The notes: a model not told the origin generated them from the letters alone. Positions 1,644-15,709 are shown, counted from the stretch's first letter. The stretch is 64,000 nucleotides of DNA from an uncultured Acidobacteriota bacterium (GCA_963770895.1 CAVYRF010000002.1:2976001-3040000); one strand, 5' to 3'. A program made the numbers and translations.

Positions 1644-3377
<1,734 letters not shown>

Positions 3378-3523: not shown

Positions 3524-3769
3524 CACGTCCGGCGCCCGGCGCGCCCCGGCGCTTGGCAGCGTCCGTCTGCCGCTCGCCGGTCGTGTTACAGCTTTGCCAA
3601 GCGAACAGCGTGCAACGGAATGTGCTTGTCACCCGTATATACGGAGGTACGGTACTGATTCTGAGTCGCCTTTGGGTGATGACGCGTAGTCGCGGCTAGG
3701 TGGCCGGGTCCCCCCGCCGGTCGGCCTCGCCAGGTGCGACGGGTGTCCTGCGGAAGAAGGGAGCCAGGG

Positions 3770-6700
3770 ATGCGACTGTGCCTCGGCGTAGTGGCGGTGG
3801 TCGTTGGTTTGGCGTTTCCGGCGTCAGGGTCGGCGCAGGCTGCCGGGGGTTCGGCCGGCGGCGCCGGGGTGACCATGGCGGTTGGTGGTAGCGGCCAGAC
3901 CGCCGCGGCGCCCCTGGTGGAGTGGCCGGAGGTGGGGCGGACGTTTGCCGAGCCGCTGGTCCCCGTCGGGGCGCCGGAGGCGCTGGAAACCCGCGAGCTG
4001 GCGGCGGCGATCCGCGCCTACCGCGCGGCGGCGGACGTTGAGGCGGTGGAGCCGATCCTCGCGTTCCTGACGCGGCACCCGGATTCGGCCTGGAAGCCGT
4101 CGTTGCTCGCCAACCTGGCGGTGCTCTATCGCCACACCGGCTACCTGGATCGCGCTCTTGCCGCGGCCGAAGATGCCTGGCGGTTGACCGCGACGTCTGG
4201 GGAGCCCGAGGCGATGAAGGTTGCCGACGCGGCGCTGGCGACCCGCATCGAGATCACCTCCGCCCTGGGCCGCACGGAGGAACTGGCGGCGCTGCTCGAC
4301 GCGGTGCGGAGCCGCCCCCTGCGCGGTCACGCCGCGGAGATCGTTTCCGGCGCGCGGTCGAGCCTGTGGCAGATGCGCCACGACCCGGGCAGCTCCTTCC
4401 GCTGCGGCCCCCTGGCCATCGAGCGGGTCGCCGCGGTGCTGCATCCGGGCGCCGCCCCCGATCCGCGGGTGCTGCGCTACCGCTCGACGGGCCAGGGCAC
4501 CTCGCTGGAGGAGATGGCGCAGCTTGCCCAGGCGACCGGCCTGGAGCTGCAGGCGTTCCAACGCCAGGCCGGCTCTCCAATCCCGGTGCCGGCGGTGGTG
4601 CATTGGAAGGCCGGCCACTTCGCGGCGCTCGTCGCGCAGCAGGGGAGCCGCTACCTGGTCAAGGACATGACCTTCGGCGACAACCGCTGGCTGAGCCGCG
4701 CCGCCGTGGAGGAGGAGTCCTCCGGCTATCTGCTTGCCCGGTCTGGAAAGCCGCTGCCGGAGGGGTGGCGTGCGGTGGCGCCCGCGGAGGCTGCGGCGGT
4801 GCGCGGGCGAGGCGCCAGCGCCAACCCCAACCCGGGAGCGACCACGCCGGCCGACCCCAAGAAGCCGGCGCTGTGCGGTGGCAACGGCGTCGGCATGCCG
4901 GTCTACAACTTTCACACCGCGGTGGTGAGCTTGAACGTCACCGACTCTCCGGTCGGCTATCAGCCGCCGCGCGGACCGGCGATGCGGTTCGGCATCACCT
5001 ACAACAGCCGCGAAGACTTTCAGCCGGCCACGTTCACCTACACCAACCTGGGCTCGCGCTGGAACTTCGACTGGCTCTCCTACGTCGAAGACGACGACCC
5101 CAACGGCAACGGCAACACCATCCGCGTCGCCGAGAGGGGCGGCGGCTCGTACATCCTGTCGCAGGTTTCGGCCATCTATTGGTGGGCGTACGGCCCCAAC
5201 GTGAGCGGTTCGCACGACACGGTGACGCGGCTGTTCCAGGCGGGTGCGAACAGCACCGTCGGCTTTGTGCGGCAGTATCCCGACGGTTCGCAGGACACCT
5301 ATCAGCTTTCGGACAACGCCGCCATGATGCGCAAGTACTACCTGACCGCGGTGACGGATGCGGTAGGCAATACGGTCACGCTCAACTACGACGCCGCGAC
5401 CACGCGCCTGCTGTCGATCACCGATCCGCTGGGCCAGACGACGACGCTCACCTATGGGTTGGCGGGAGACATGTACAAAGTCACCGCGGTCACCGACCCG
5501 TTTGGGCGCCAGGCGCTCTTTCAGTATTCCGGCGGCGAGCTGCAGAGCGTCACCGACGCCGCCGGGATGACATCGTCGTTCGCCTACGGTCCGACCGTGC
5601 CGGCGCCGGCAGCGCCCTATTGCCTCAACAGCAGCTACGACACGGTGTACGCCGTGCCGGCGGATTTCATGAACGCGATGACCACTCCCTACGGCACGAC
5701 GAGCTTCGTCATGGGGGAGGCGCCGCCGTGCGTCGGAACCGACCTTGGCAACATCCGCTGGCTGCAGGCGACCGATCCGCTCGGCCACCAGGAGCGGATC
5801 GAGTTCACGCACGAAGCGCAGAACGTTCCAGAGACCACGACCGAGCCGATCCCCGCCGGCTTTGGCAACGAAAACCTGGCGTATCGCAATACCTACTATT
5901 GGAACCCGACGGCGATGGAGCAGTACAGCGCCGCCGATCCCAATCGGTATCTCAACGCCACCTTCACCATCCACTGGCTGCGCGACTTTTCGGAAGGCGG
6001 GACGGCGGCGTCTTCGATCCCGGGTTTTGTTCAGCCGCAGGGGGAGCGCCGCATCTGGATGAACTATCCCAACATGCCCGGCGACAGCGACCAGGGCAGC
6101 CTTTCGGCGCCGACCGTCACGGCGACGGTGCTCGACACCGGCCAGACCCAGGCAACTGCCTCCAGCTACGATGCCTCGGGCAGGCTGCTGACCTATGCCG
6201 ACCCGGCGGGCCGCACCTATAACTACCTGTATGCGGCCAACCAGATCGATCTGATCAAGGTGCTGGCCGGGCAGCTGGATGGCGGCGGCACTGGCCTTAC
6301 GTCTGCCGGCGAACAGCTGGCCGGCTTGACCTACAACTCGGTGCATGAACCGCTCACCTACGTCGACTACGCGGGCCAGCGGTCGACATTCACCTACAAC
6401 AGCTTTGGCGAGATGACCTCGGCGCAGCGGCCGGATGGGGTGACCACCAACTACACCTACGACAGCCGGGGTTTTCTGATCCAAAAAGCGATCGCCGGGA
6501 CCACCTACCAGGAAACCTACACGTACGACTCCGCCAATCGGCTGCTGACCTGGACGTCGACGGACGGCTACACCTTGACGTTCAGCTACGACTCGCTGGA
6601 TCGCCTCACGCAGATCACCTATCCGGACGGCACGATGGACCAGGTGGTGTTCAACAAGTTGGACGTCGTGGCCTATCAGGACCGCATGGGACGGGTCACC

Positions 6701-7858
6701 ACGTACGCCTACGACGCCGCCGATCGCCTGGCTTCCGTCACCGACCCGGCAGGAAGAACCACGACCTATTCCTGGTGCGGCTGTGGCGCGCTGTCGCAGG
6801 TGGCCGACCCGCGCGGCTACCTGACCACCTGGATGCTCGACGGCCTCAACCGCGTGGTCGGCAAGCAGGTCAACGGCGCCACGGTGGCGCTCTTTGCCTA
6901 CGACGACGCCGGCAGGTTGATCCGGCGCACCGACGGGTTGGGCCAGGTCACCAACTACAGCTATACCGTCGACAACCGGCTGGCGGCGATCACCTATCAG
7001 AACAGCGTCCACGCGACGCCCGGCGTGCAATATTTCTACGATCAGTACTACCCGCGCTTGACGATGATGACCGATGCGTTCGGTTCGACGCTCTACAGCT
7101 ACAACCCCGCGGGCAGCGTCGGAGCGGGACAGATCGCCAGCATCACCGCGCCGGCGCCCAATCACACGATCATCTTTCAATACGACGTCAACGGCCGGCG
7201 CATCGGCCAGACGGTTGACGGCGTGGCGCAGACGCGGACCTACGACAGCGAGGATCGTCTGACGACCCTGGCCAGCCCGCTCGGCACGTTCACCGCGACC
7301 TACGTCGGATCGTCCAGCCGGATGGCCACGCTGTCCTATCCGAACGGTCAGGGAGCGGCGTATTCCTATCTTGGCCCGACGCAAGACTTTCGTTTATCGC
7401 AGGTGGTCTGGGGTTCCACGGCGAACGGCCCCAACCTGTCGCAGTTCGGCTACTCCTATGATCCTGCTCACCAGCAGATCGTCGGCCTCTCCTGGTTCGA
7501 TATCGACAACCCGACGGGGCGATTCTTCAACTTCACCTACGACGGCGCCCAGCAGCTGATCGCGCGGCAGCAGACAACCAACCCGGCGCAGTCGCCGGTG
7601 ACGACGCTGCACACCTACGCGGCCGGCTACGACCCGTCGGGCAACCGCACCAGCGAAACCATCGATACGGCTCTATCGACCGCAACCTACGACGGCGCCA
7701 ATCAGCTGATCACGCTCGATTCCGGGCTCAGCCTGCAGGCGCAGGCGGCAATCCAGCAGCTGCGCGCCCGCCGGCCGGCGGCGACGGTGCCGCCGCGAAG
7801 TCCAGCCGGAGCGCCGGGAACTCCAGGCAACGTCAACGGGGGCGGCCATGAGAACTGA
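3770..7858 (+). CDS. Secreted Rhs/YD-repeat protein with N-terminal peptidase C39-like domain; lacks the Rhs core C-terminus (N-terminal half of a split Rhs)
   Basis: Signal peptide MRLCLGVVAVVVGLAFPASGSA. C39-like residues FRCGPLA / VVHWKAGHFAAL / LVKD. Rhs N-terminal region (VSLNVTDSPVGYQPPRGP...LGSRWNFDW) and many YD repeats. Ends after YDPSGNRTSE...YDGANQL with no DPxGL. Alternative GTG start at 3734. Confidence 0.88.
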   Translation: MRLCLGVVAVVVGLAFPASGSAQAAGGSAGGAGVTMAVGGSGQTAAAPLVEWPEVGRTFAEPLVPVGAPEALETRELAAAIRAYRAAADVEAVEPILAFLTRHPDSAWKPSLLANLAVLYRHTGYLDRALAAAEDAWRLTATSGEPEAMKVADAALATRIEITSALGRTEELAALLDAVRSRPLRGHAAEIVSGARSSLWQMRHDPGSSFRCGPLAIERVAAVLHPGAAPDPRVLRYRSTGQGTSLEEMAQLAQATGLELQAFQRQAGSPIPVPAVVHWKAGHFAALVAQQGSRYLVKDMTFGDNRWLSRAAVEEESSGYLLARSGKPLPEGWRAVAPAEAAAVRGRGASANPNPGATTPADPKKPALCGGNGVGMPVYNFHTAVVSLNVTDSPVGYQPPRGPAMRFGITYNSREDFQPATFTYTNLGSRWNFDWLSYVEDDDPNGNGNTIRVAERGGGSYILSQVSAIYWWAYGPNVSGSHDTVTRLFQAGANSTVGFVRQYPDGSQDTYQLSDNAAMMRKYYLTAVTDAVGNTVTLNYDAATTRLLSITDPLGQTTTLTYGLAGDMYKVTAVTDPFGRQALFQYSGGELQSVTDAAGMTSSFAYGPTVPAPAAPYCLNSSYDTVYAVPADFMNAMTTPYGTTSFVMGEAPPCVGTDLGNIRWLQATDPLGHQERIEFTHEAQNVPETTTEPIPAGFGNENLAYRNTYYWNPTAMEQYSAADPNRYLNATFTIHWLRDFSEGGTAASSIPGFVQPQGERRIWMNYPNMPGDSDQGSLSAPTVTATVLDTGQTQATASSYDASGRLLTYADPAGRTYNYLYAANQIDLIKVLAGQLDGGGTGLTSAGEQLAGLTYNSVHEPLTYVDYAGQRSTFTYNSFGEMTSAQRPDGVTTNYTYDSRGFLIQKAIAGTTYQETYTYDSANRLLTWTSTDGYTLTFSYDSLDRLTQITYPDGTMDQVVFNKLDVVAYQDRMGRVTTYAYDAADRLASVTDPAGRTTTYSWCGCGALSQVADPRGYLTTWMLDGLNRVVGKQVNGATVALFAYDDAGRLIRRTDGLGQVTNYSYTVDNRLAAITYQNSVHATPGVQYFYDQYYPRLTMMTDAFGSTLYSYNPAGSVGAGQIASITAPAPNHTIIFQYDVNGRRIGQTVDGVAQTRTYDSEDRLTTLASPLGTFTATYVGSSSRMATLSYPNGQGAAYSYLGPTQDFRLSQVVWGSTANGPNLSQFGYSYDPAHQQIVGLSWFDIDNPTGRFFNFTYDGAQQLIARQQTTNPAQSPVTTLHTYAAGYDPSGNRTSETIDTALSTATYDGANQLITLDSGLSLQAQAAIQQLRARRPAATVPPRSPAGAPGTPGNVNGGGHEN

Positions 7859-10800
7859 GCGGTGGCTGGAAGCCGTCCGCGGCCGGCTGCTGCCGCTCGC
7901 GTTTGCGGGTGTTGTCCTGGTTACCGGCGGGCTACGCCAGGTCCGTGCGCAGACCAGTGTCACGGTGAGCGGACCGACCACCTTGTATCAAGGCGAAGCC
8001 GCGATCTACAACGCGTCCGTCTATCCCTATCCCACCGGGACCGTGGTCACCTGGTCGGTGTATCCGCCGGCGGGTGTCACCTTGAACGAACCTGGAACGA
8101 CATCCATCAACGTCACGGCAGGCACGACGCCCGGCGTGTACACCCTGACCGCCATTGCCAATAACGTGGCCTCAGGATATTTGAACATCACCGTCCCGGG
8201 GCCTCCGGTCACTTCGGTGACCCCGCTGACCGCCGTGATCGCCGCCGGCCAGGCGGCCTTGTTTTCCGCCAGCGTGATCAACTCGGACTCGCCATACTTC
8301 TTTTGGAGCACGGACGACCCCAGCGGTATTGTTGCGGGAGGCGGGGGCGCGGGCACCGGCCCCGTCGGTCAATTCAGCCACATCGTGGGCCGCTCGGGAG
8401 GGCTGTTTCATGTCTACGTCGTCAACAACGGAGACGGCAATTATGGCGTCCAGGGCACCGCGACCGTGCAGGTGGTCGACGTCGCCGTCGCGCCGGCGGC
8501 CATTACGGTCCTGCCTGGCACCGCGCGGCAATTCTTTGCCGACGTGACCGGCAGCCAGCAGAGCGTGCAATGGTCCTCGACGTTGCCGGGAGCTACCTTT
8601 TCGAGCACCGGCCTCCTTCAGGTGCCGGCCAACGCGGCCGCGGGCTCCTACACCGTCACGGTGCAGACCGTCGGCAACCCGCTGGCGACCAGCACCGCGG
8701 CGCTCACGGTCGTGTCCACCATGCCGGTGAGCGGGGTCGCCGTGTCGCCGTCGCGCTCGGTGATCGATTCGGGGCAGCAGGAGCCCTTCACGGCGGTGGT
8801 GGAAGACCCCAACGGTGAGCCGCATCCCAACCAGGCAGTCACCTGGTCGGTTGCCGGTCCGGGCGCCGCGTCGATTGCCGCCAACGGTCTGTTCACCGCG
8901 CCTGCCGTGCCCGGCGTCTTTACCGTCACGGCGACGGCGGTGGCGAATCCGACCCAATCAGGCACCGCCACGGTGACGGTGGGCGAAGACCTGGAGATCC
9001 TGCCGTCGTCGCCCAGCCTTGCGCCGGGCGCCAGCCAGGCCTTCACCGCGCAGGTCAGCGGCGTCGCCAATCCGGCCGTGACCTGGAGCGTAGAGGAAGG
9101 CTCGGCAGGTGGCAGCATCACCACGGCGGGGCTCTACACCGCCCCCGTCGGCGCCGGCGTCTACCACGTCCTGGCGCTGTCCACCGCGGCGGGAGGCGGC
9201 CCCGTACAGGGCTTGGCGACGGTCACCGTGAGCGCCGGCCCGCTGATCGGGATCGCCGTCGCCCCGGCGGAAACCGCGGTGGCCGCGGGCGGCCTGCAGC
9301 AGTTCACCGCCACTGTGGCAGGCGCCGCCGACACCGGCGTCCTGTGGTCCGTGTCGGCAGGTTCGATCGACGCGACCGGCCTCTTCACCGCCCCCACGAC
9401 CGACGGCACCGTCACCATCACCGCCGCGAGCCACGCCGACCCGCAGGTGCAGGCCTCGGCAACCGCGGTCGTCACGGTTCCCGGCCAGGGGCAGGCGTTC
9501 CAATACGACGCCAACGGCAACCTGCTGTCCGACGGCACCCGCACCTACGAATGGGATGCGGAAAACCGCCTGACCGCGATCAACATCGGCAGTCAGCGCA
9601 GCCAGTTCGCCTACGACGGCCTGGGGCGGCGCGCGCTCATCACCGAGCTGAACAACGGCGCCGTGGTGAGCAGCCGGCACTACATCTGGGTGGAAGACCA
9701 GATCGTCGAAGAGACGGACGCCACCGTCGATCCGACCGGAGCGGTCACCGCGCCTGGCAACTTCGACAGCCTCAACTGCAACCAGGTCGCCGGCTGGGCG
9801 TGGAATCCCGCCCAACCGAACACGCCTGTCAGCGTCAGCATCGAGTCCGGCACGACCAGCGAGGCAACCGTGCTGGCCAACAACTACCGCAGCGACCTCA
9901 AGCTCGCCGGCGCCGGCAACGGCAACCACGGCTTCACCTATCCATTGCCCGCGCAGTTCAAGACCGGCACGGCGCAGGCCGCGACGCTGTTGCTAACCGG
10001 CACCACGACATCGCTCGGCACCCGCACCGTGACCTGTACCGCGCCCAGCTTTTCAGGCTCGTTCGCCAGCCCCAGCTGCACCCAGCTCGCCGGTTGGGCC
10101 TGGGACGCCACCGAACCCAACGACCCGATCAACGTCGACATCTACGACGGCACCACCCTGATCGTCACCGTCCTTGCCAACACCTTCCGCCAGGACCTGG
10201 AAAACGCCGGCATCGGCAACGGTGTCCACGGCTTCTTCCTCCCCACCCCCGCCGCGCTCAAGACCGGCACCGCCCACACCATCACCCTCAAAGCCGGAGG
10301 CACGCCGACGGTCATCGGCGCCCCGCAAACGCTCACCTGCTCCAGCGCCAACTTCGCCGGTTTCTTCGACTATGCTGACTGCACCCAGCTCGCCGGCTGG
10401 GCCTGGGATGCCAACCAACCCAACGCCGCCCTCAACGTGGACCTCTACGACAACGGCGCCCTGCTCGCCACCATCCCCGCCGCCACCTTCCGCCAGGACC
10501 TGCAAACCGCCGGCAAGGGCAACGGCGATCACGGCTTCACCTACACCTCGCCAGCCCTCTACTCCGGCACCACCCACAGCCTGTCCGTCACCTATTCCGG
10601 CACCACCATCCCCTTGGGAGGCACCCCAAAGACCATCACCTGCCCAACCGAGCCCATCCTCACCCGCTTCTTCCCCGGAGGCATGCAGTCCAGCGGCACC
10701 AACTACTACTTCACCTACGACCGCCTGGGCAGCGTCCGCGAAGTCACCGACCCCAACGGCAAGGTCGTCAGCCGCTACGATTACGACCCCTACGGACGCC

Positions 10801-11426
10801 TCACCATCAACCAAGGCACCCCGCCCCGCTTCGGCTTCGCCGGTACCTACTACCACCAACCCTCCGGCCTCAGCCTGACCGAGTACCGCGCCTACGACCC
10901 CAACCTCGGCCGCTGGGAAAGCCGCGACCCGTTGGGTGAAATAGGTGGCGAGTTCAACCTCTACCGCTATACCGGCGGGGATCCGATCAATCTGATCGAT
11001 CCTCTTGGGCTAGCGACGATAGAGGCGACGCCTCCAAACGCCGTTACGTATCTTGCCCCTGACGGTCAGTGTTTTTATGCGCCTCCTGGTGTAGATTGGA
11101 ATGAGGTCCACAAGGCTGGCCATGATCAGGGGCTTCTTGGAGCAGCCGACAACGTCGCACAAAAAGGCAGATATGACGTTCAGCGCAGTGGTGACAACTT
11201 TTATCTCGCCTATGTTCATGCGTCAAATTACGCCGTCGGCGTCTATATGAACGGGGCAGGGATTCCATTATGGGCGACCGACGTGATAGGCAAAACATAC
11301 GGGCTTCTTAAGTCTGACAATACGGCCCATAACGACTGGGTGACCTGGTGGGCAAATGGCTGGAATGCTGCAAACTCTGGACGGCTTCCAGCTAAACCTT
11401 GTAAGTGCCGGCCTGCCAAGCATTGA
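7848..11426 (+). CDS. Secreted Ig-like-repeat protein with Rhs-associated core and C-terminal toxin domain (possibly Ntox44-like)
   Basis: Signal peptide ending VRA-QT; about 6 Big_2-like repeats (VAVSP...QQFTATV...VTWSV...GLFTAP); YDANGNL...WDAENRL; three GWAWD repeats; core YDPYG...RAYDPNLGRW...DPINLIDPLGL; then a lower-GC tip containing YDVQR and SNYAVGVYMNGAG. Confidence 0.88.
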   Translation: MRTERWLEAVRGRLLPLAFAGVVLVTGGLRQVRAQTSVTVSGPTTLYQGEAAIYNASVYPYPTGTVVTWSVYPPAGVTLNEPGTTSINVTAGTTPGVYTLTAIANNVASGYLNITVPGPPVTSVTPLTAVIAAGQAALFSASVINSDSPYFFWSTDDPSGIVAGGGGAGTGPVGQFSHIVGRSGGLFHVYVVNNGDGNYGVQGTATVQVVDVAVAPAAITVLPGTARQFFADVTGSQQSVQWSSTLPGATFSSTGLLQVPANAAAGSYTVTVQTVGNPLATSTAALTVVSTMPVSGVAVSPSRSVIDSGQQEPFTAVVEDPNGEPHPNQAVTWSVAGPGAASIAANGLFTAPAVPGVFTVTATAVANPTQSGTATVTVGEDLEILPSSPSLAPGASQAFTAQVSGVANPAVTWSVEEGSAGGSITTAGLYTAPVGAGVYHVLALSTAAGGGPVQGLATVTVSAGPLIGIAVAPAETAVAAGGLQQFTATVAGAADTGVLWSVSAGSIDATGLFTAPTTDGTVTITAASHADPQVQASATAVVTVPGQGQAFQYDANGNLLSDGTRTYEWDAENRLTAINIGSQRSQFAYDGLGRRALITELNNGAVVSSRHYIWVEDQIVEETDATVDPTGAVTAPGNFDSLNCNQVAGWAWNPAQPNTPVSVSIESGTTSEATVLANNYRSDLKLAGAGNGNHGFTYPLPAQFKTGTAQAATLLLTGTTTSLGTRTVTCTAPSFSGSFASPSCTQLAGWAWDATEPNDPINVDIYDGTTLIVTVLANTFRQDLENAGIGNGVHGFFLPTPAALKTGTAHTITLKAGGTPTVIGAPQTLTCSSANFAGFFDYADCTQLAGWAWDANQPNAALNVDLYDNGALLATIPAATFRQDLQTAGKGNGDHGFTYTSPALYSGTTHSLSVTYSGTTIPLGGTPKTITCPTEPILTRFFPGGMQSSGTNYYFTYDRLGSVREVTDPNGKVVSRYDYDPYGRLTINQGTPPRFGFAGTYYHQPSGLSLTEYRAYDPNLGRWESRDPLGEIGGEFNLYRYTGGDPINLIDPLGLATIEATPPNAVTYLAPDGQCFYAPPGVDWNEVHKAGHDQGLLGAADNVAQKGRYDVQRSGDNFYLAYVHASNYAVGVYMNGAGIPLWATDVIGKTYGLLKSDNTAHNDWVTWWANGWNAANSGRLPAKPCKCRPAKH
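9756..10645 (+). repeat. Three tandem ~100-aa domains inserted in the Rhs core
   Basis: GxFxxxxCxQxAGWAWxxxxPN...RxDLxxAGxGNGxHGF...TxTC occurs three times. Confidence 0.85.
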
Positions 11427-11443: not shown

Positions 11444-12124
11444 ATGCTGGCAACGTTTGCATCCGTAGGTGCGATCGGTATCTTGGTGGCGCTGCTTTGC
11501 TTATCGGGGATGATGTGCCTGGTCTTCAGAGCCGTCCGCATGCCCCAGGCTTTGGCTTGGACTCGGAAGCTCTTTGGTAGCCTCGCTCTGGCAGCTTGCG
11601 GGGTAGGTGTTTTGGTGACGCTGGTTGTCTTCTTTCGGTTACCAGCCCTTTTCGATCCACAGGGCGGCAATAATGGCAGTTGCTTTGATGATGCGCTGGG
11701 ACAGATCTCAAACGGGAGCGGCATGATTGTGTCTGGGCATTACACGTTGTGCGATGACTACTTTCACAGTTCAGGGGTGTATTTATACCTGCACGGATCC
11801 GCCGAGCCCGATAGACGCGAGAACCTGATTCTGCGATATTCCAACGATTGCTGCGGAGGCGCTCGCCCAAAGATTGCATGGCATGGTGCTGGCGCTTTGA
11901 CGATCGCGATTGGCAATGTAGACCAGGTCACGAAACTGGTGCCGTCTCTGCGTGGAGTTCATATTGACTATGCCGTGGGAAGTGAAGCAGTCCCGCGAAG
12001 CGCCTGGCCGGATCATATCCACCACATTCAAGTCCTTGCGGTTGGGTTGGTCGCATTGGATATCGCGCTAATCTTCTTGTCTAGAGCTATTTTGCGCTCT
12101 GTGCGGCGATGGGCAACGAAATGA
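11444..12124 (+). CDS. Putative immunity protein (membrane-anchored, extracytoplasmic domain)
   Basis: Directly follows the toxin tip, lower GC, N- and C-terminal TM segments, paralogous to 12493..13086. Confidence 0.7.
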   Translation: MLATFASVGAIGILVALLCLSGMMCLVFRAVRMPQALAWTRKLFGSLALAACGVGVLVTLVVFFRLPALFDPQGGNNGSCFDDALGQISNGSGMIVSGHYTLCDDYFHSSGVYLYLHGSAEPDRRENLILRYSNDCCGGARPKIAWHGAGALTIAIGNVDQVTKLVPSLRGVHIDYAVGSEAVPRSAWPDHIHHIQVLAVGLVALDIALIFLSRAILRSVRRWATK

Positions 12125-12489: not shown

Positions 12490-13090
12490 GGGGTGCGCGT
12501 GATGGTGATATTGAAATACCTTGGCTTGGCGCTGTGCTGCGGATGCGTCATGGTGGCGGCACTCTTTTTGTCGCGACTTCCTGATTATCTGGATCCGCAG
12601 GGAATGGCCCCTGCTGACGAGTATGCCGAGAGCTGCTTCTCGACGGTGCTGCCGGACGTTGCCGGTGGGGATGGGTTCATTGTGTCAGGGCATCACACCT
12701 ATTGTGACGACATCATTCATGACTCGGCTGTGTACGTGTACTTGCATCGCGCCACTGAGTCAGATGACCGCCGGCATCTAGTGTTCAGATACGCCGACAA
12801 TTTCTTGGTGCCGGAACCGAAGATCGTTTGGACCGGAAAGTCTACTTTGTCTATCTCCGTCGGTCCTGTGGTTGCGGTGACGAAGGAGGTGTCCTCCCTG
12901 GAAGGAGTCAGGATCACCTATTCCGTGAAGAGGGAGCAGTATCCGCGCAGCGATATGGAGGCGGATACTCATGAGATGGAGTTACTGGTAGGAGGGGTGC
13001 TCTTGTTTGGCATCTTGATGGCAATTGTATCGTGGCGCCTTATCCGTTCGATTCGGCAGGGCCGGTCCCGGAATGAATCCACGTAGCTAC
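12490..13090 (+). repeat. ~600 bp direct repeat, copy 1 (copy 2 at 15114..15713)
   Basis: Near-identical sequence; by eye it differs by one T in a T-run and one G/A substitution. Confidence 0.92.
12493..13086 (+). CDS. Putative immunity protein, paralog of 11444..12124
   Basis: Shared motifs SCF...IVSGHxTxCDDxxHxSxVYxYLH...RY...PKIxWxG...VTKxVxSLxGVxIxYxV. Confidence 0.72.
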   Translation: MRVMVILKYLGLALCCGCVMVAALFLSRLPDYLDPQGMAPADEYAESCFSTVLPDVAGGDGFIVSGHHTYCDDIIHDSAVYVYLHRATESDDRRHLVFRYADNFLVPEPKIVWTGKSTLSISVGPVVAVTKEVSSLEGVRITYSVKREQYPRSDMEADTHEMELLVGGVLLFGILMAIVSWRLIRSIRQGRSRNEST

Positions 13091-13974
13091 AAACCGCCGG
13101 CAAGGGCACCGGCGACCACGGCTTCACCTACTCCACGCCAGCCCTCTACTCCGGCACCACCCACAGCCTGGCCGTCACCTATTCCGGCACCACCATCCCC
13201 TTGGGAGGCACCCCAAAGACCATCACCTGCCCAACCGAGCCCATCCTCACCCGCTTCTTCCCCGGAGGCATGCAGTCCAGCGGCACCAACTACTACTTCT
13301 CCTACGACCACCTGGGCAGCGTCCGCGAAGTCACCGACCCCAACGGCAACGTCATCAGCCGCTACGATTACGATCCCTACGGCCGCCTGACCGTCAATCA
13401 GGGTGTTCCGCCACGCCTCGGCTTCGCCGGTATGTACGACCACCAACCCTCTGGCCTCGGCCTGACCGAATACCGCGCCTACGACCCCAATCTTGGTCGC
13501 TGGGAAAGCCGGGATCTCGTAGAAAGCAACAACGCCTACATCTATGCGCTGAGCGATCCGATCGACAACCTCGACCCGCTCGGGCTCGACGTCACCGTTT
13601 GCTTTTACTCGGATGCTGCTGGTGGATTCGGGCATATCGGCTACGGCGTCACTGGGGAGACCAGTACCCAAGGTTTCTATCCCAAGAAAGGGGGTTCGGG
13701 GCCAGGAATTATCAAGCCCGATACTCAGAAGGTTGCCCAATGCCTAAGGATTCCAACGCCACCCTTCGTGGATCAGTGCCTCAAGCAATGTCGTGCTGAT
13801 CGGGCAGCAAATCCAGGCAACTACAATTTGCTGAATCGTCAGTGCACGAGCTTTGTCCGCGATTGCCTCAAGGCTTGTGGTATCAACACCACCATGTCAA
13901 GCAGCCCGGAGCCAGGAGACCTGTTCAACTATCTGTTACAGGGTTACCCGTCCACTCCGGGTACGGGAAATTAA
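13087..13974 (+). pseudogene. Orphan Rhs C-terminal cassette with a different toxin tip (permuted papain-like)
   Basis: 13090-13511 closely matches 10503-10924. The frame opens right after the upstream TAG with no ATG or RBS. DPIDNLDPLGL is followed by GHIG...YNLLNRQCTSFV. Confidence 0.82.
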
Positions 13975-14969: not shown

Positions 14970-15116
14970 GAAATCCTCCTTCGTCAAGGATAGCAGGAAG
15001 AGATTTCTTCTGTAGCGCTGGTTCGATGCGAACTGGATAAAGGAGCCCTGGCGTCGGTGCGGTGGCCGGCCCGGAGGACCTGGAGGCGAGCAGCCGCGAA
15101 TGCGCTATTCTGGGGG

Positions 15117-15709
15117 GTGCGCGTGATGGTGATATTGAAATACCTTGGCTTGGCGCTGTGCTGCGGATGCGTCATGGTGGCGGCACTCTTTTGTCGCGAC
15201 TTCCTGATTATCTGGATCCGCAGGGAATGGCCCCTGCTGACGAGTATGCCGAGAGCTGCTTCTCGACGGTGCTGCCGAACGTTGCCGGTGGGGATGGGTT
15301 CATTGTGTCAGGGCATCACACCTATTGTGACGACATCATTCATGACTCGGCTGTGTACGTGTACTTGCATCGCGCCACTGAGTCAGATGACCGCCGGCAT
15401 CTAGTGTTCAGATACGCCGACAATTTCTTGGTGCCGGAACCGAAGATCGTTTGGACCGGAAAGTCTACTTTGTCTATCTCCGTCGGTCCTGTGGTTGCGG
15501 TGACGAAGGAGGTGTCCTCCCTGGAAGGAGTCAGGATCACCTATTCCGTGAAGAGGGAGCAGTATCCGCGCAGCGATATGGAGGCGGATACTCATGAGAT
15601 GGAGTTACTGGTAGGAGGGGTGCTCTTGTTTGGCATCTTGATGGCAATTGTATCGTGGCGCCTTATCCGTTCGATTCGGCAGGGCCGGTCCCGGAATGAA
15701 TCCACGTAG
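15117..15709 (+). pseudogene. Frameshifted duplicate of the 12493..13086 immunity gene
   Basis: ACTC-TTTT-G near 15185 versus ACTC-TTTTT-G in copy 1, shifting the frame after MVAAL. Confidence 0.8.

Follow-up and report, generated by a model that had tools for sequence, protein, structure and literature searches.

A conserved two-gene split of an Rhs toxin in Acidobacteriota, with a predicted export signal on each chain

In the current view, the cage of an Rhs toxin folds around the toxin either as one chain or, in the case of TcB and TcC, as two chains that co-fold in the cytoplasm. Here we describe a locus of an uncultured Acidobacteriota bacterium, found in a stretch of 64,000 nucleotides (GCA_963770895.1, CAVYRF010000002.1:2976001-3040000; hereafter the window), in which one Rhs shell appears to be divided between two overlapping genes on the plus strand, gene 1 (3770..7858) and gene 2 (7848..11426). 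By analogy, its nearest precedent is the TcB-TcC cocoon of Tc toxins (TcdB2-TccC3, 4o9x and 6h6g; YenB/YenC, 4igl), a two-polypeptide RHS/YD cage encoded by adjacent genes; a comparable split arrangement is so far known only from these insecticidal toxins. We consider it probable that the window locus encodes a polymorphic toxin of the Rhs type and that two polypeptides from one translationally coupled operon make up its cage.

As with TcC, the second gene encodes the predicted core aspartyl autoprotease and a variable toxin, gene layout and colinearity would fit a two-chain cocoon, and both families have natural fused and split forms. The structural model of gene 1 resembles the start of the TcB shell and the SpvB N-domain (Z 12.9-17.2; SpvB N-domain, Z 12.9), and the gene 2 core matches TccC3 by sequence. 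The break, however, lies about 80-85% along the shell, against about two thirds in Tc toxins. The gene 2 chain would give only the last hairpins and the plug, it starts with an immunoglobulin-like (Ig-like) stalk, and a signal peptide is predicted on each chain. Unlike TcB, gene 1 starts with a C39-type peptidase; no SpvB-type Pfam domain and no beta-propeller is seen in it. The host of the split locus is a soil acidobacterium, whose genome gave no match to TcA VRP1 (PF03538), a weak negative since the control was also silent.

The best structural matches to the gene 1 shell are Rhs effectors of type VI secretion systems (T6SS): RhsA (7q97), S. bongori Rhs (8qjb/8qjd), RhsP (8h8a), Tse15 (8uxt) and Tre23-Rhs (7pq5), with Z 18-24. 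These effectors have the same core domain and DPxGL motif as gene 2, and share with the window locus a variable tip, downstream immunity genes and orphan cassettes. They are single chains carried on PAAR/VgrG, whereas the window locus encodes two chains, both with predicted Sec-type N-termini. An initial annotation, made from the window sequence, had remarked that no PAAR or VgrG gene is present in the window, and this holds for the whole genome (8.16 Mb in 3 contigs, 94.95% complete): PAAR, VgrG-type GPD and TssC, the T6SS sheath protein (PF05488, PF05954, PF05943), gave no match, nor did SpvB (PF03534), all with positive controls. Neither the PAAR/VgrG linkage nor the genomic T6SS that characterize a T6SS Rhs effector is found here.

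Sec-dependent Rhs/WapA-type toxins with swappable tips and immunity genes have been grouped in a "T2SS" (type II secretion system) class (Zhang et al. 2012, PMC3482391); in the available text of that paper they are described as single proteins, without a C39-linked RHS or a split shell. The figure legend of a 2024 preprint on Rhs containers mentions small Rhs proteins whose containers are incomplete. Neither a split Rhs exported by Sec nor a C39-Rhs family was found described in the accessible parts of the literature, whose supplements may list related architectures.

Recurrence of the two-gene split

The start of gene 2 and the stop of gene 1 overlap by 11 nt (ATGAGAACTGA, 7848..7858, plus strand): gene 2 begins with an ATG at 7848 and gene 1 ends with a TGA at 7856-7858. 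The initial annotation had recognized this overlap, as well as the signal-peptide-like start of gene 2 and its approximately six Ig domains, and all checkable details of that description are correct. It missed the C39-type peptidase domain, three inserts in the shell part of gene 2, the paralogs of the pair and its one-gene relatives.

Seven gene 1-gene 2 pairs (p1 to p7) are present in the genome of the window (G000). Compared with the window copies, gene 1 is 64-96% and gene 2 59-91% identical; partner by partner, the identities (gene 1/gene 2, in %) are 96/91, 92/85, 83/79, 71/62, 64/59 and 65/61, and each whole gene 2 copy diverges in step with its partner. Five of the seven pairs have an ATGA(G/A)AACTGA overlap in common, where gene 1 ends in GHEN before the stop and gene 2 starts with MR/KTE, and a sixth (p6) has an ATGA overlap. 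The pair p7 (G000:C2:5442936-5449369) is degraded, with about 800 nt lost across the junction: its gene 1 ends near residue 1231 and its gene 2 starts near residue 123, out of frame. The pair p3 (G000:C2:653368-660680) has the N-terminal 369 residues of its gene 1 in a different frame, with only 62% identity.

Three more pairs occur in two related genomes, two in G011 and one in G005. There, the GTG of gene 2 overlaps the TGA of gene 1 (GTGA), 6-9 nt after AAGGAGG or GGGAG, and each gene 2 opens with a signal-peptide-like segment. Of 41 related genomes, only G000, G005 and G011 have full gene 2-type matches, and G001 has a fragment. Matches of the gene 1 type fall in these four genomes as well: full copies are as numerous for one gene as for the other (7, 1 and 2, respectively), and G001 has fragments of both; the other 37 genomes have no match of either type.

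Six further split loci lie in other Acidobacteriota contigs from metagenome-assembled genomes (MAGs). The split is seen in a Thermoanaerobaculia MAG with a TAATG overlap (L037) and, with a short gap and a new signal-peptide-like start, in a Holophagaceae MAG (L039) and a MAG labelled Acidobacteria (L054). L053 and L057, with the label Solibacteraceae, are also split, L057 with the same kind of gap and start, and a reciprocal gene 2 scan gave short-gap loci in another MAG labelled Acidobacteria (L121) and in a Mesoterricola MAG (L123). A stop, then a TAATG overlap or a gap, and next a new start with a hydrophobic, signal-like segment are seen at all of these loci. Altogether, the split layout is found at 16 loci in at least nine genomes, at 37-96% identity and with intact domains in both genes. 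The search for the same split in other genomes, which the initial annotation had proposed, was therefore successful in G011, G005 and the six further MAG loci; with the seven pairs of the genome itself, it bears out the view that the split is not a frameshift artefact.

Two candidates were discarded. The apparent split of L063 has NN at its junction, and a 2798-aa frame in G011:C3, at first sight a fusion, comes from reading gene 1 out of frame where the high-G+C DNA has no stop. As for read support of the window junction, 14 of the 15 listed runs cover part of 7500-8200, the best with 36% of the sampled words, and none of the runs is recorded as RNA. Of the contigs X1-X4 placed on the window, none bridges 7840-7870.

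The two chains and their single-chain relatives

Gene 1 encodes the shell chain, of 1362 aa counted from the likely ATG start at 3770; its residues (P0001) are numbered below from the GTG at 3734, where the frame opens. The N-terminus has a charged start and a hydrophobic stretch at residues 1-25 in a Kyte-Doolittle scan, and resembles a signal peptide (MRLCLGVVAVVVGLAFPASGSAQA, 3770..3841). It is followed by a helical TPR-like region (P0001 ~60-215, 3911..4378), delineated from conserved alignment columns of split and single-chain relatives, and by a C39-type cysteine peptidase domain (P0001 217-339, 4382..4750). Residues 224-336 match Peptidase_C39 (PF03412) with 27.6 bits against a cut-off of 22. 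Of the triad, H295 and D311 do not vary in 36 sequences of both split and single-chain forms, and the conservation of C224 is at least 90%. ComA-type peptidases have a similar Cys/His/Asp spacing. In the gene 1 model, residues 3-125 match the C39 fold of 6mpz_B (Z 12.9, root-mean-square deviation (rmsd) 2.8, 119 of 140 residues aligned), and the peptidase domains of ComA and PCAT1 match with Z 11-12. On this model, the domain has the fold of Peptidase C39 (double-glycine peptidases) and a predicted peptidase activity. A conserved G-K-G-A linker just before the shell could, speculatively, be a cis-cleavage site.

The rest of gene 1 is mostly shell. The N-terminal ~80% of the YD/Rhs spiral spans P0001 376-1332 (4859..7729), with family matches to RHS_repeat (7.7e-52) and YD_repeat_2x. 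The chain then ends in ...YDPSGNRTSETIDTALSTATYDGANQL and a 40-aa tail (7730..7855), made of a short helix LSLQAQAAIQQLR and a disordered Pro/Ala/Gly-rich end, whose DNA carries the ribosome-binding motif for gene 2. A GG near this C-terminus was not adopted as a double-glycine site of the C39 type, as the overlapping ribosome-binding motif accounts for it. Across gene 1 there also runs an antisense open frame of 1186 aa (3824-7384, minus strand), which we do not regard as a gene because such frames are a by-product of the 64-73% G+C content.

Gene 2 (P0002, 1192 aa) encodes the stalk, the end of the shell, the core and the toxin. Its N-terminus, MRTERWLEAVRGRLLPLAFAGVVLVTGGLRQVRA|QTS (7848..7949), has a hydrophobic stretch at residues 14-32 after a charged start in the same type of scan, with an h-region LLPLAFAGVVLVTGG and a putative cleavage site VRA|Q. 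Equivalent signal-peptide-like N-termini are present in all other intact split loci. From inspection and hydropathy, both chains are predicted to carry Sec-type signal peptides. Next come the approximately six Ig-like domains (Big_2 / I-set type in Pfam), up to residue ~540 (7950..9467). The YD pattern resumes at FQYDANGNLLSDGTRTYEWDAENRL; this restart covers residues 541-628 (9468..9731), as judged from a TIGR01643 match at 569-596 and from colinearity with single-chain relatives, and gene 2 has an RHS_repeat match of 2e-09.

A loop of the shell then holds three tandem inserts of ~100 aa with two Cys each (residues ~629-936, 9732..10655). These inserts vary among gene 2 relatives: the G011:C3 copy (L032) has three repeats of a different kind, relatives of which bear NBR1-Ig/CARDB Pfam labels, and more distant Ig-array proteins have no insert in this loop. 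The last YD strands, the Rhs-associated core and the DPLGL motif follow (10656..11012), with a match to Rhs_assc_core (TIGR03696) of 7.9e-21 at residues 979-1055. The conserved Asp pair of the core is in place: over 26 sequences, conservation is at least 90% at D1027 and complete at D1051 and G1054. The chain ends with a toxin tip of 137 aa from an unnamed family (11013..11426). A family-profile search gave no Rhs_assc_core match in gene 1, in agreement with the initial annotation, according to which gene 1 holds most of the YD repeats and stops short of the core. The two genes together have the hallmarks of Rhs/YD-repeat toxins, namely a YD shell and a core with its Asp pair and DPxGL, at which cleavage is predicted. 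Shell, core and toxin are not joined in one polypeptide as in other Rhs toxins, and this separation is conserved in the 16 loci.

How much of the cage each chain covers can be seen from the solved structures. We folded gene 1 residues 215-1374 with a 36-sequence alignment; the model has a mean predicted local distance difference test (pLDDT) score of 84.3 and a predicted template modelling (pTM) score of 0.74. It consists of beta-hairpins up to P0001 ~1332, then the helix of the tail and its disordered end. Model residues 162-1121 superpose on residues 360-1173 of the S. bongori Rhs core (8qjb_A) with Z 24.4 and rmsd 3.0 over 778 aligned residues, and model residues 154-1109 on residues 273-1122 of RhsA (7q97_A) with Z 23.8. 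The S. bongori core construct extends to residue 1420, according to the title of the entry. The gene 1 model ends about 250 residues before the end of the cage; therefore, gene 1 lacks the final ~250 cage residues. By sequence, gene 2 residues 941-1055 match the last 115 residues of 8qjd_A, and residues 953-1055 match 7q97_A 1185-1290.

In Rhs proteins of solved structure, the final part closes the cage and cleaves the toxin. From its match to these proteins, gene 2 is predicted to supply the cage-closing, toxin-cleaving part.

The single-chain relatives contain both pieces. With the N-terminal 400 residues of gene 1 as query we collected 51 proteins and classed them by BLAST against segments of gene 2. 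Nineteen are split-type gene 1 proteins without YD restart or core (at least 45% identical, 1212-1367 aa), and 21 are single chains with both segments in the same polypeptide (30-39% identical, 1517-1880 aa). Three have only one of the two segments, seven are fragments, and one, P0048 (1905 aa), has gene 1 joined in frame to the fourth Ig domain of gene 2. The single-chain C39-Rhs proteins (for instance P0166 and P0144; loci L038-L112) are homologous to the whole of gene 1 (33-39%) and to the YD and core parts of gene 2, and they share with gene 1 the predicted N-terminal signal peptide and the columns of the peptidase triad. In P0166, residues 65-1333 align with gene 1 57-1333, residues 1333-1394 with gene 2 564-625, and residues 1398-1524 with gene 2 937-1056. 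Gene 1 and the two YD/core pieces of gene 2 therefore rebuild one ordinary Rhs protein with neither gap nor overlap, as expected from the earlier proposal that gene 2 resumes the shell where gene 1 stops. Measured against the one-gene form, what has been added is the gene 1 tail, the triple insert and, in gene 2, the predicted signal peptide with the Ig stalk. Where the split lies, single-chain proteins have either nothing or one Ig-like domain, and they have no triple insert; in P0144, P0147, P0154 and P0160 the Ig-like domain, of ~70-80 aa, sits exactly at the split site.

In a wider scan, with one genome per species, we confirmed 199 family loci, mostly from Verrucomicrobiota, Acidobacteriota and Proteobacteria, and kept 79. 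A match to the end of gene 1 is found in 61 of the 79 and in none of the other 18. Among these 61, 51 continue in the same frame into the YD restart and/or the core and are thus single-chain, seven are split, with a stop within 36-50 residues and then Ig-like sequence or the contig end, and three are unassignable owing to a contig end or NN at the junction. The single-chain family with a signal peptide, TPR-like region, C39-type peptidase and Rhs shell (loci L038-L112) also extends to Rhizobium/Mesorhizobium, Acidithiobacillus and Tolumonas.

We built two FastTree trees of the region homologous to gene 1, both with a midpoint root. The first has 40 rows, 12 fragmentary or irregular proteins having been left out; the second has 61 rows and leaves out the 18 loci without an end match as well as 12 partial, duplicate or irregular loci. 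A single branch in each tree has all the split forms to one side of it, with one label change, and the Shimodaira-Hasegawa-like support of that branch is 100 (40 rows) and 98 (61 rows). The nearest single-chain neighbours of the split forms in the second tree, P0144, L044 and L052, are all acidobacterial. Rooted in this way, the trees suggest that a single-chain ancestor was split once, long ago, in a loop where an Ig-like domain was already tolerated.

Toxin tips, immunity candidates and neighbouring genes

The tip of the window locus belongs to a family with 289 relatives at E<=0.001, which form the C-terminal tips of Rhs, PAAR-Rhs, two-partner secretion (TPS) and LysM proteins. No family of Pfam or NCBIfam matches it, even with thresholds relaxed to E<=10 or E<=0.1, and it has no sequence match in the PDB at E<=1 with a 31-sequence profile. 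We did not adopt the label Ntox44 for it, as Atlas gave only weak leads, in clusters partly labelled Ntox44 (0.86).

Directly downstream of gene 2, a frame that is open from a GTG at 11405 encodes a candidate immunity protein (11444..12124, plus strand), each end of which has predicted hydrophobic helices. Its product is 39-40% identical to those of the open reading frames (ORFs) 12493-13086 and 15062-15709; the first of these (12493..13086, plus strand) encodes a second immunity-like membrane protein, of which the other is a 97% copy. A multi-helix membrane ORF is also found downstream of gene 2. Since the immunity candidates are membrane-anchored, the tip may act in the envelope. An orphan cassette (13201..13974, plus strand) consists of the last YD strands, the Rhs core and a different tip, without an N-terminal part of its own. 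Another one (G000:C2:1555181-1556869, minus strand), downstream of pair p2, is 85% identical to gene 2 538-1095 and starts exactly at the YD restart (residue 538). The locus thus combines a variable tip, a candidate immunity gene and orphan cassettes in the manner of Rhs loci, with immunity as the presumed function of the membrane proteins.

The initial annotation had described gene 2 as an exchangeable adhesin-plus-toxin subunit. This stands for the tips, which are of six different kinds among the seven pairs, and orphan cassettes start at the YD restart. It does not stand for the subunit as a whole, as gene 2 in its entirety diverges along with the gene 1 of the same pair, from 96/91 to 64/59%.

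A GroEL gene lies upstream of gene 1 (1734-3377) and is the only full groEL match in the genome (tblastn). We rejected it as a dedicated chaperone: it encodes an ordinary GroEL (854 bits) and is not found beside the other pairs. A GroEL-like fragment of 41 aa with 76% identity is located just upstream of p5 (G000:C2:2573037-2573159), hinting at a duplication that carried flanking DNA. Elsewhere, the genome contains other, unrelated giant YD/Rhs-like frames of up to 4228 aa (G000:C1:592226-596794; G000:C2:4905140-4936054; G000:C2:5807310-5826852), among them a cluster of three on C2.

Assembly of the cage and alternative readings

The two-chain cage is well supported by comparison, because the split recurs, the chains are colinear with one-gene relatives, the split forms occupy one branch and gene 1 makes an incomplete cage. 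In such a mechanism, translational coupling would make both chains in fixed proportion. Chain 1, exported by Sec, would bring some four fifths of the YD spiral along with the C39-type peptidase domain; chain 2, with its own Sec signal, would bring the stalk of about six Ig domains, the last YD hairpins, the Rhs core and the toxin. The chains would meet after translocation, and the YD strands of chain 2 would extend the open sheet of chain 1. The Rhs core would then close the cage and cut the toxin at DPLGL, so that the toxin ends up inside, with the Ig stalk and the three loop domains facing outward as binding modules. The two secretins found in the genome could offer a route across the outer membrane. 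The system would have a single origin in a single-chain C39-Rhs that already tolerated an Ig-like insert in a shell loop, and its tips and membrane-anchored immunity genes would be swapped by recombination, as in other Rhs loci.

More tentative, and in our estimate a little short of an even chance, is that the cage is completed outside the cytoplasm, the unfolded chains crossing separately and the stalk-plug-toxin chain zipping onto a preformed open shell and trapping the toxin. Such a completion would be encapsulation without cytoplasmic co-folding. The C39-type peptidase may replace the N-terminal processing that T6SS Rhs proteins perform by autocleavage. In addition, one shell gene may serve several alternative stalk-toxin chains, as hinted by the tandem ORFs of L117 (see below).

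Several points weigh against the two-chain cage. The binding of the two chains to each other is itself inferred from comparison, and the enclosure of the toxin is unexplained if the chains fold after separate translocation. The gene 2 signal, judged by eye and hydropathy, could be an uncleaved membrane anchor instead. L117:1-10741 is a stretch of a 15.6-kb contig where ORFs of the gene 2 type, made of LamG, Ig, a short YD tail, core and toxin, stand in tandem and no gene 1 is present; proteins of this type might thus work by themselves or have a shell gene in common at a distance. L120:5750-8695 is one ORF of 982 aa that combines an N-terminal TPR/C39-like part, in which Tyr occupies the position of the peptidase Cys, with Ig domains, a YD tail, core and toxin, and has no shell, being either the product of a deletion or a chimera in the MAG. 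Because small Rhs proteins with incomplete containers exist elsewhere, according to the preprint legend, a closed cage may not be obligatory. Lastly, both are FastTree trees rooted at the midpoint, and by themselves they are also compatible with one fusion in place of one split.

The same loci feed the most serious alternative, which we nevertheless hold to be unlikely: gene 2 would be an Ig-stalk adhesin with a self-cleaving minimal YD/core and a toxin, and gene 1 a separate peptidase/YD protein, merely co-transcribed. L117, L120 and the incomplete containers of the preprint legend fit such independent proteins, as do the long Ig-array proteins with only a short YD tail (P0036, P0081 and P0116). 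For these arrays, however, the gene 2-type loci (L118, L119 and L124) start right at the edges of contigs, where anything upstream is out of view. Yet each gene has exactly what the other is missing, the two align without a gap to one-gene relatives, and their start/stop coupling is conserved. Their copy numbers are equal, they co-occur in the same 4 of 41 genomes and the partners co-diverge. Moreover, gene 1 is directly upstream at every gene 2-type locus that has enough upstream DNA and a gene 1 match (L114-L116, L121, L123, L037, L039, L054 and L057).

The remaining readings concern the junction. If programmed frameshifting or read-through gave one polypeptide, the second signal would be an internal hydrophobic segment; the short overlap conserved in five paralogs would suit this, and so would P0048 as an in-frame fusion. 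However, the frame offset from gene 1 to gene 2 varies (+1 in p1-p5, +2 in p6 and G011), stops lie inside the gaps between the genes at L039, L054, L057, L121 and L123, and a Shine-Dalgarno-like motif with an ATG or GTG is found ahead of every gene 2. P0048, on a MAG contig of 6.8 kb, joins gene 1 up to residue ~1303 to gene 2 from residue ~328 and thus has neither the junction nor the second signal peptide; it has a second internal deletion, near its N-terminus. We therefore regard a frameshifted single polypeptide as very improbable. Still less credible is that the split stems from faulty assembly or sequencing, or marks a pseudogene that broke recently. High G+C does yield long spurious frames, as with the antisense frame 3824-7384 and the 2798-aa frame of G011, p7 is degraded by a deletion and the p3 gene 1 N-terminus lies in two frames. 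But the same architecture, with intact domains, is present throughout the 16 loci at all their levels of identity, and the split forms are one old clade in both trees; for practical purposes, the paralogs and orthologs refute this reading.

For Rhs toxins, the two-chain cage points to a natural break late in the spiral, conserved since ancient times, with a predicted export signal on either piece. If true, it shows where an Rhs cage can open and re-close, and that encapsulation is possible after Sec translocation. The insertion tolerance of the Rhs shell and the target finding of these toxins can be followed along a series made up of the split site, the Ig insert that one-gene relatives carry and the variable domains of the loop. 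The comparison also defines a widespread, so far undescribed Sec-dependent Rhs family with an N-terminal C39-type peptidase. For Acidobacteriota, abundant bacteria of soil, it is a candidate weapon of competition, here in a genome where no T6SS was found.

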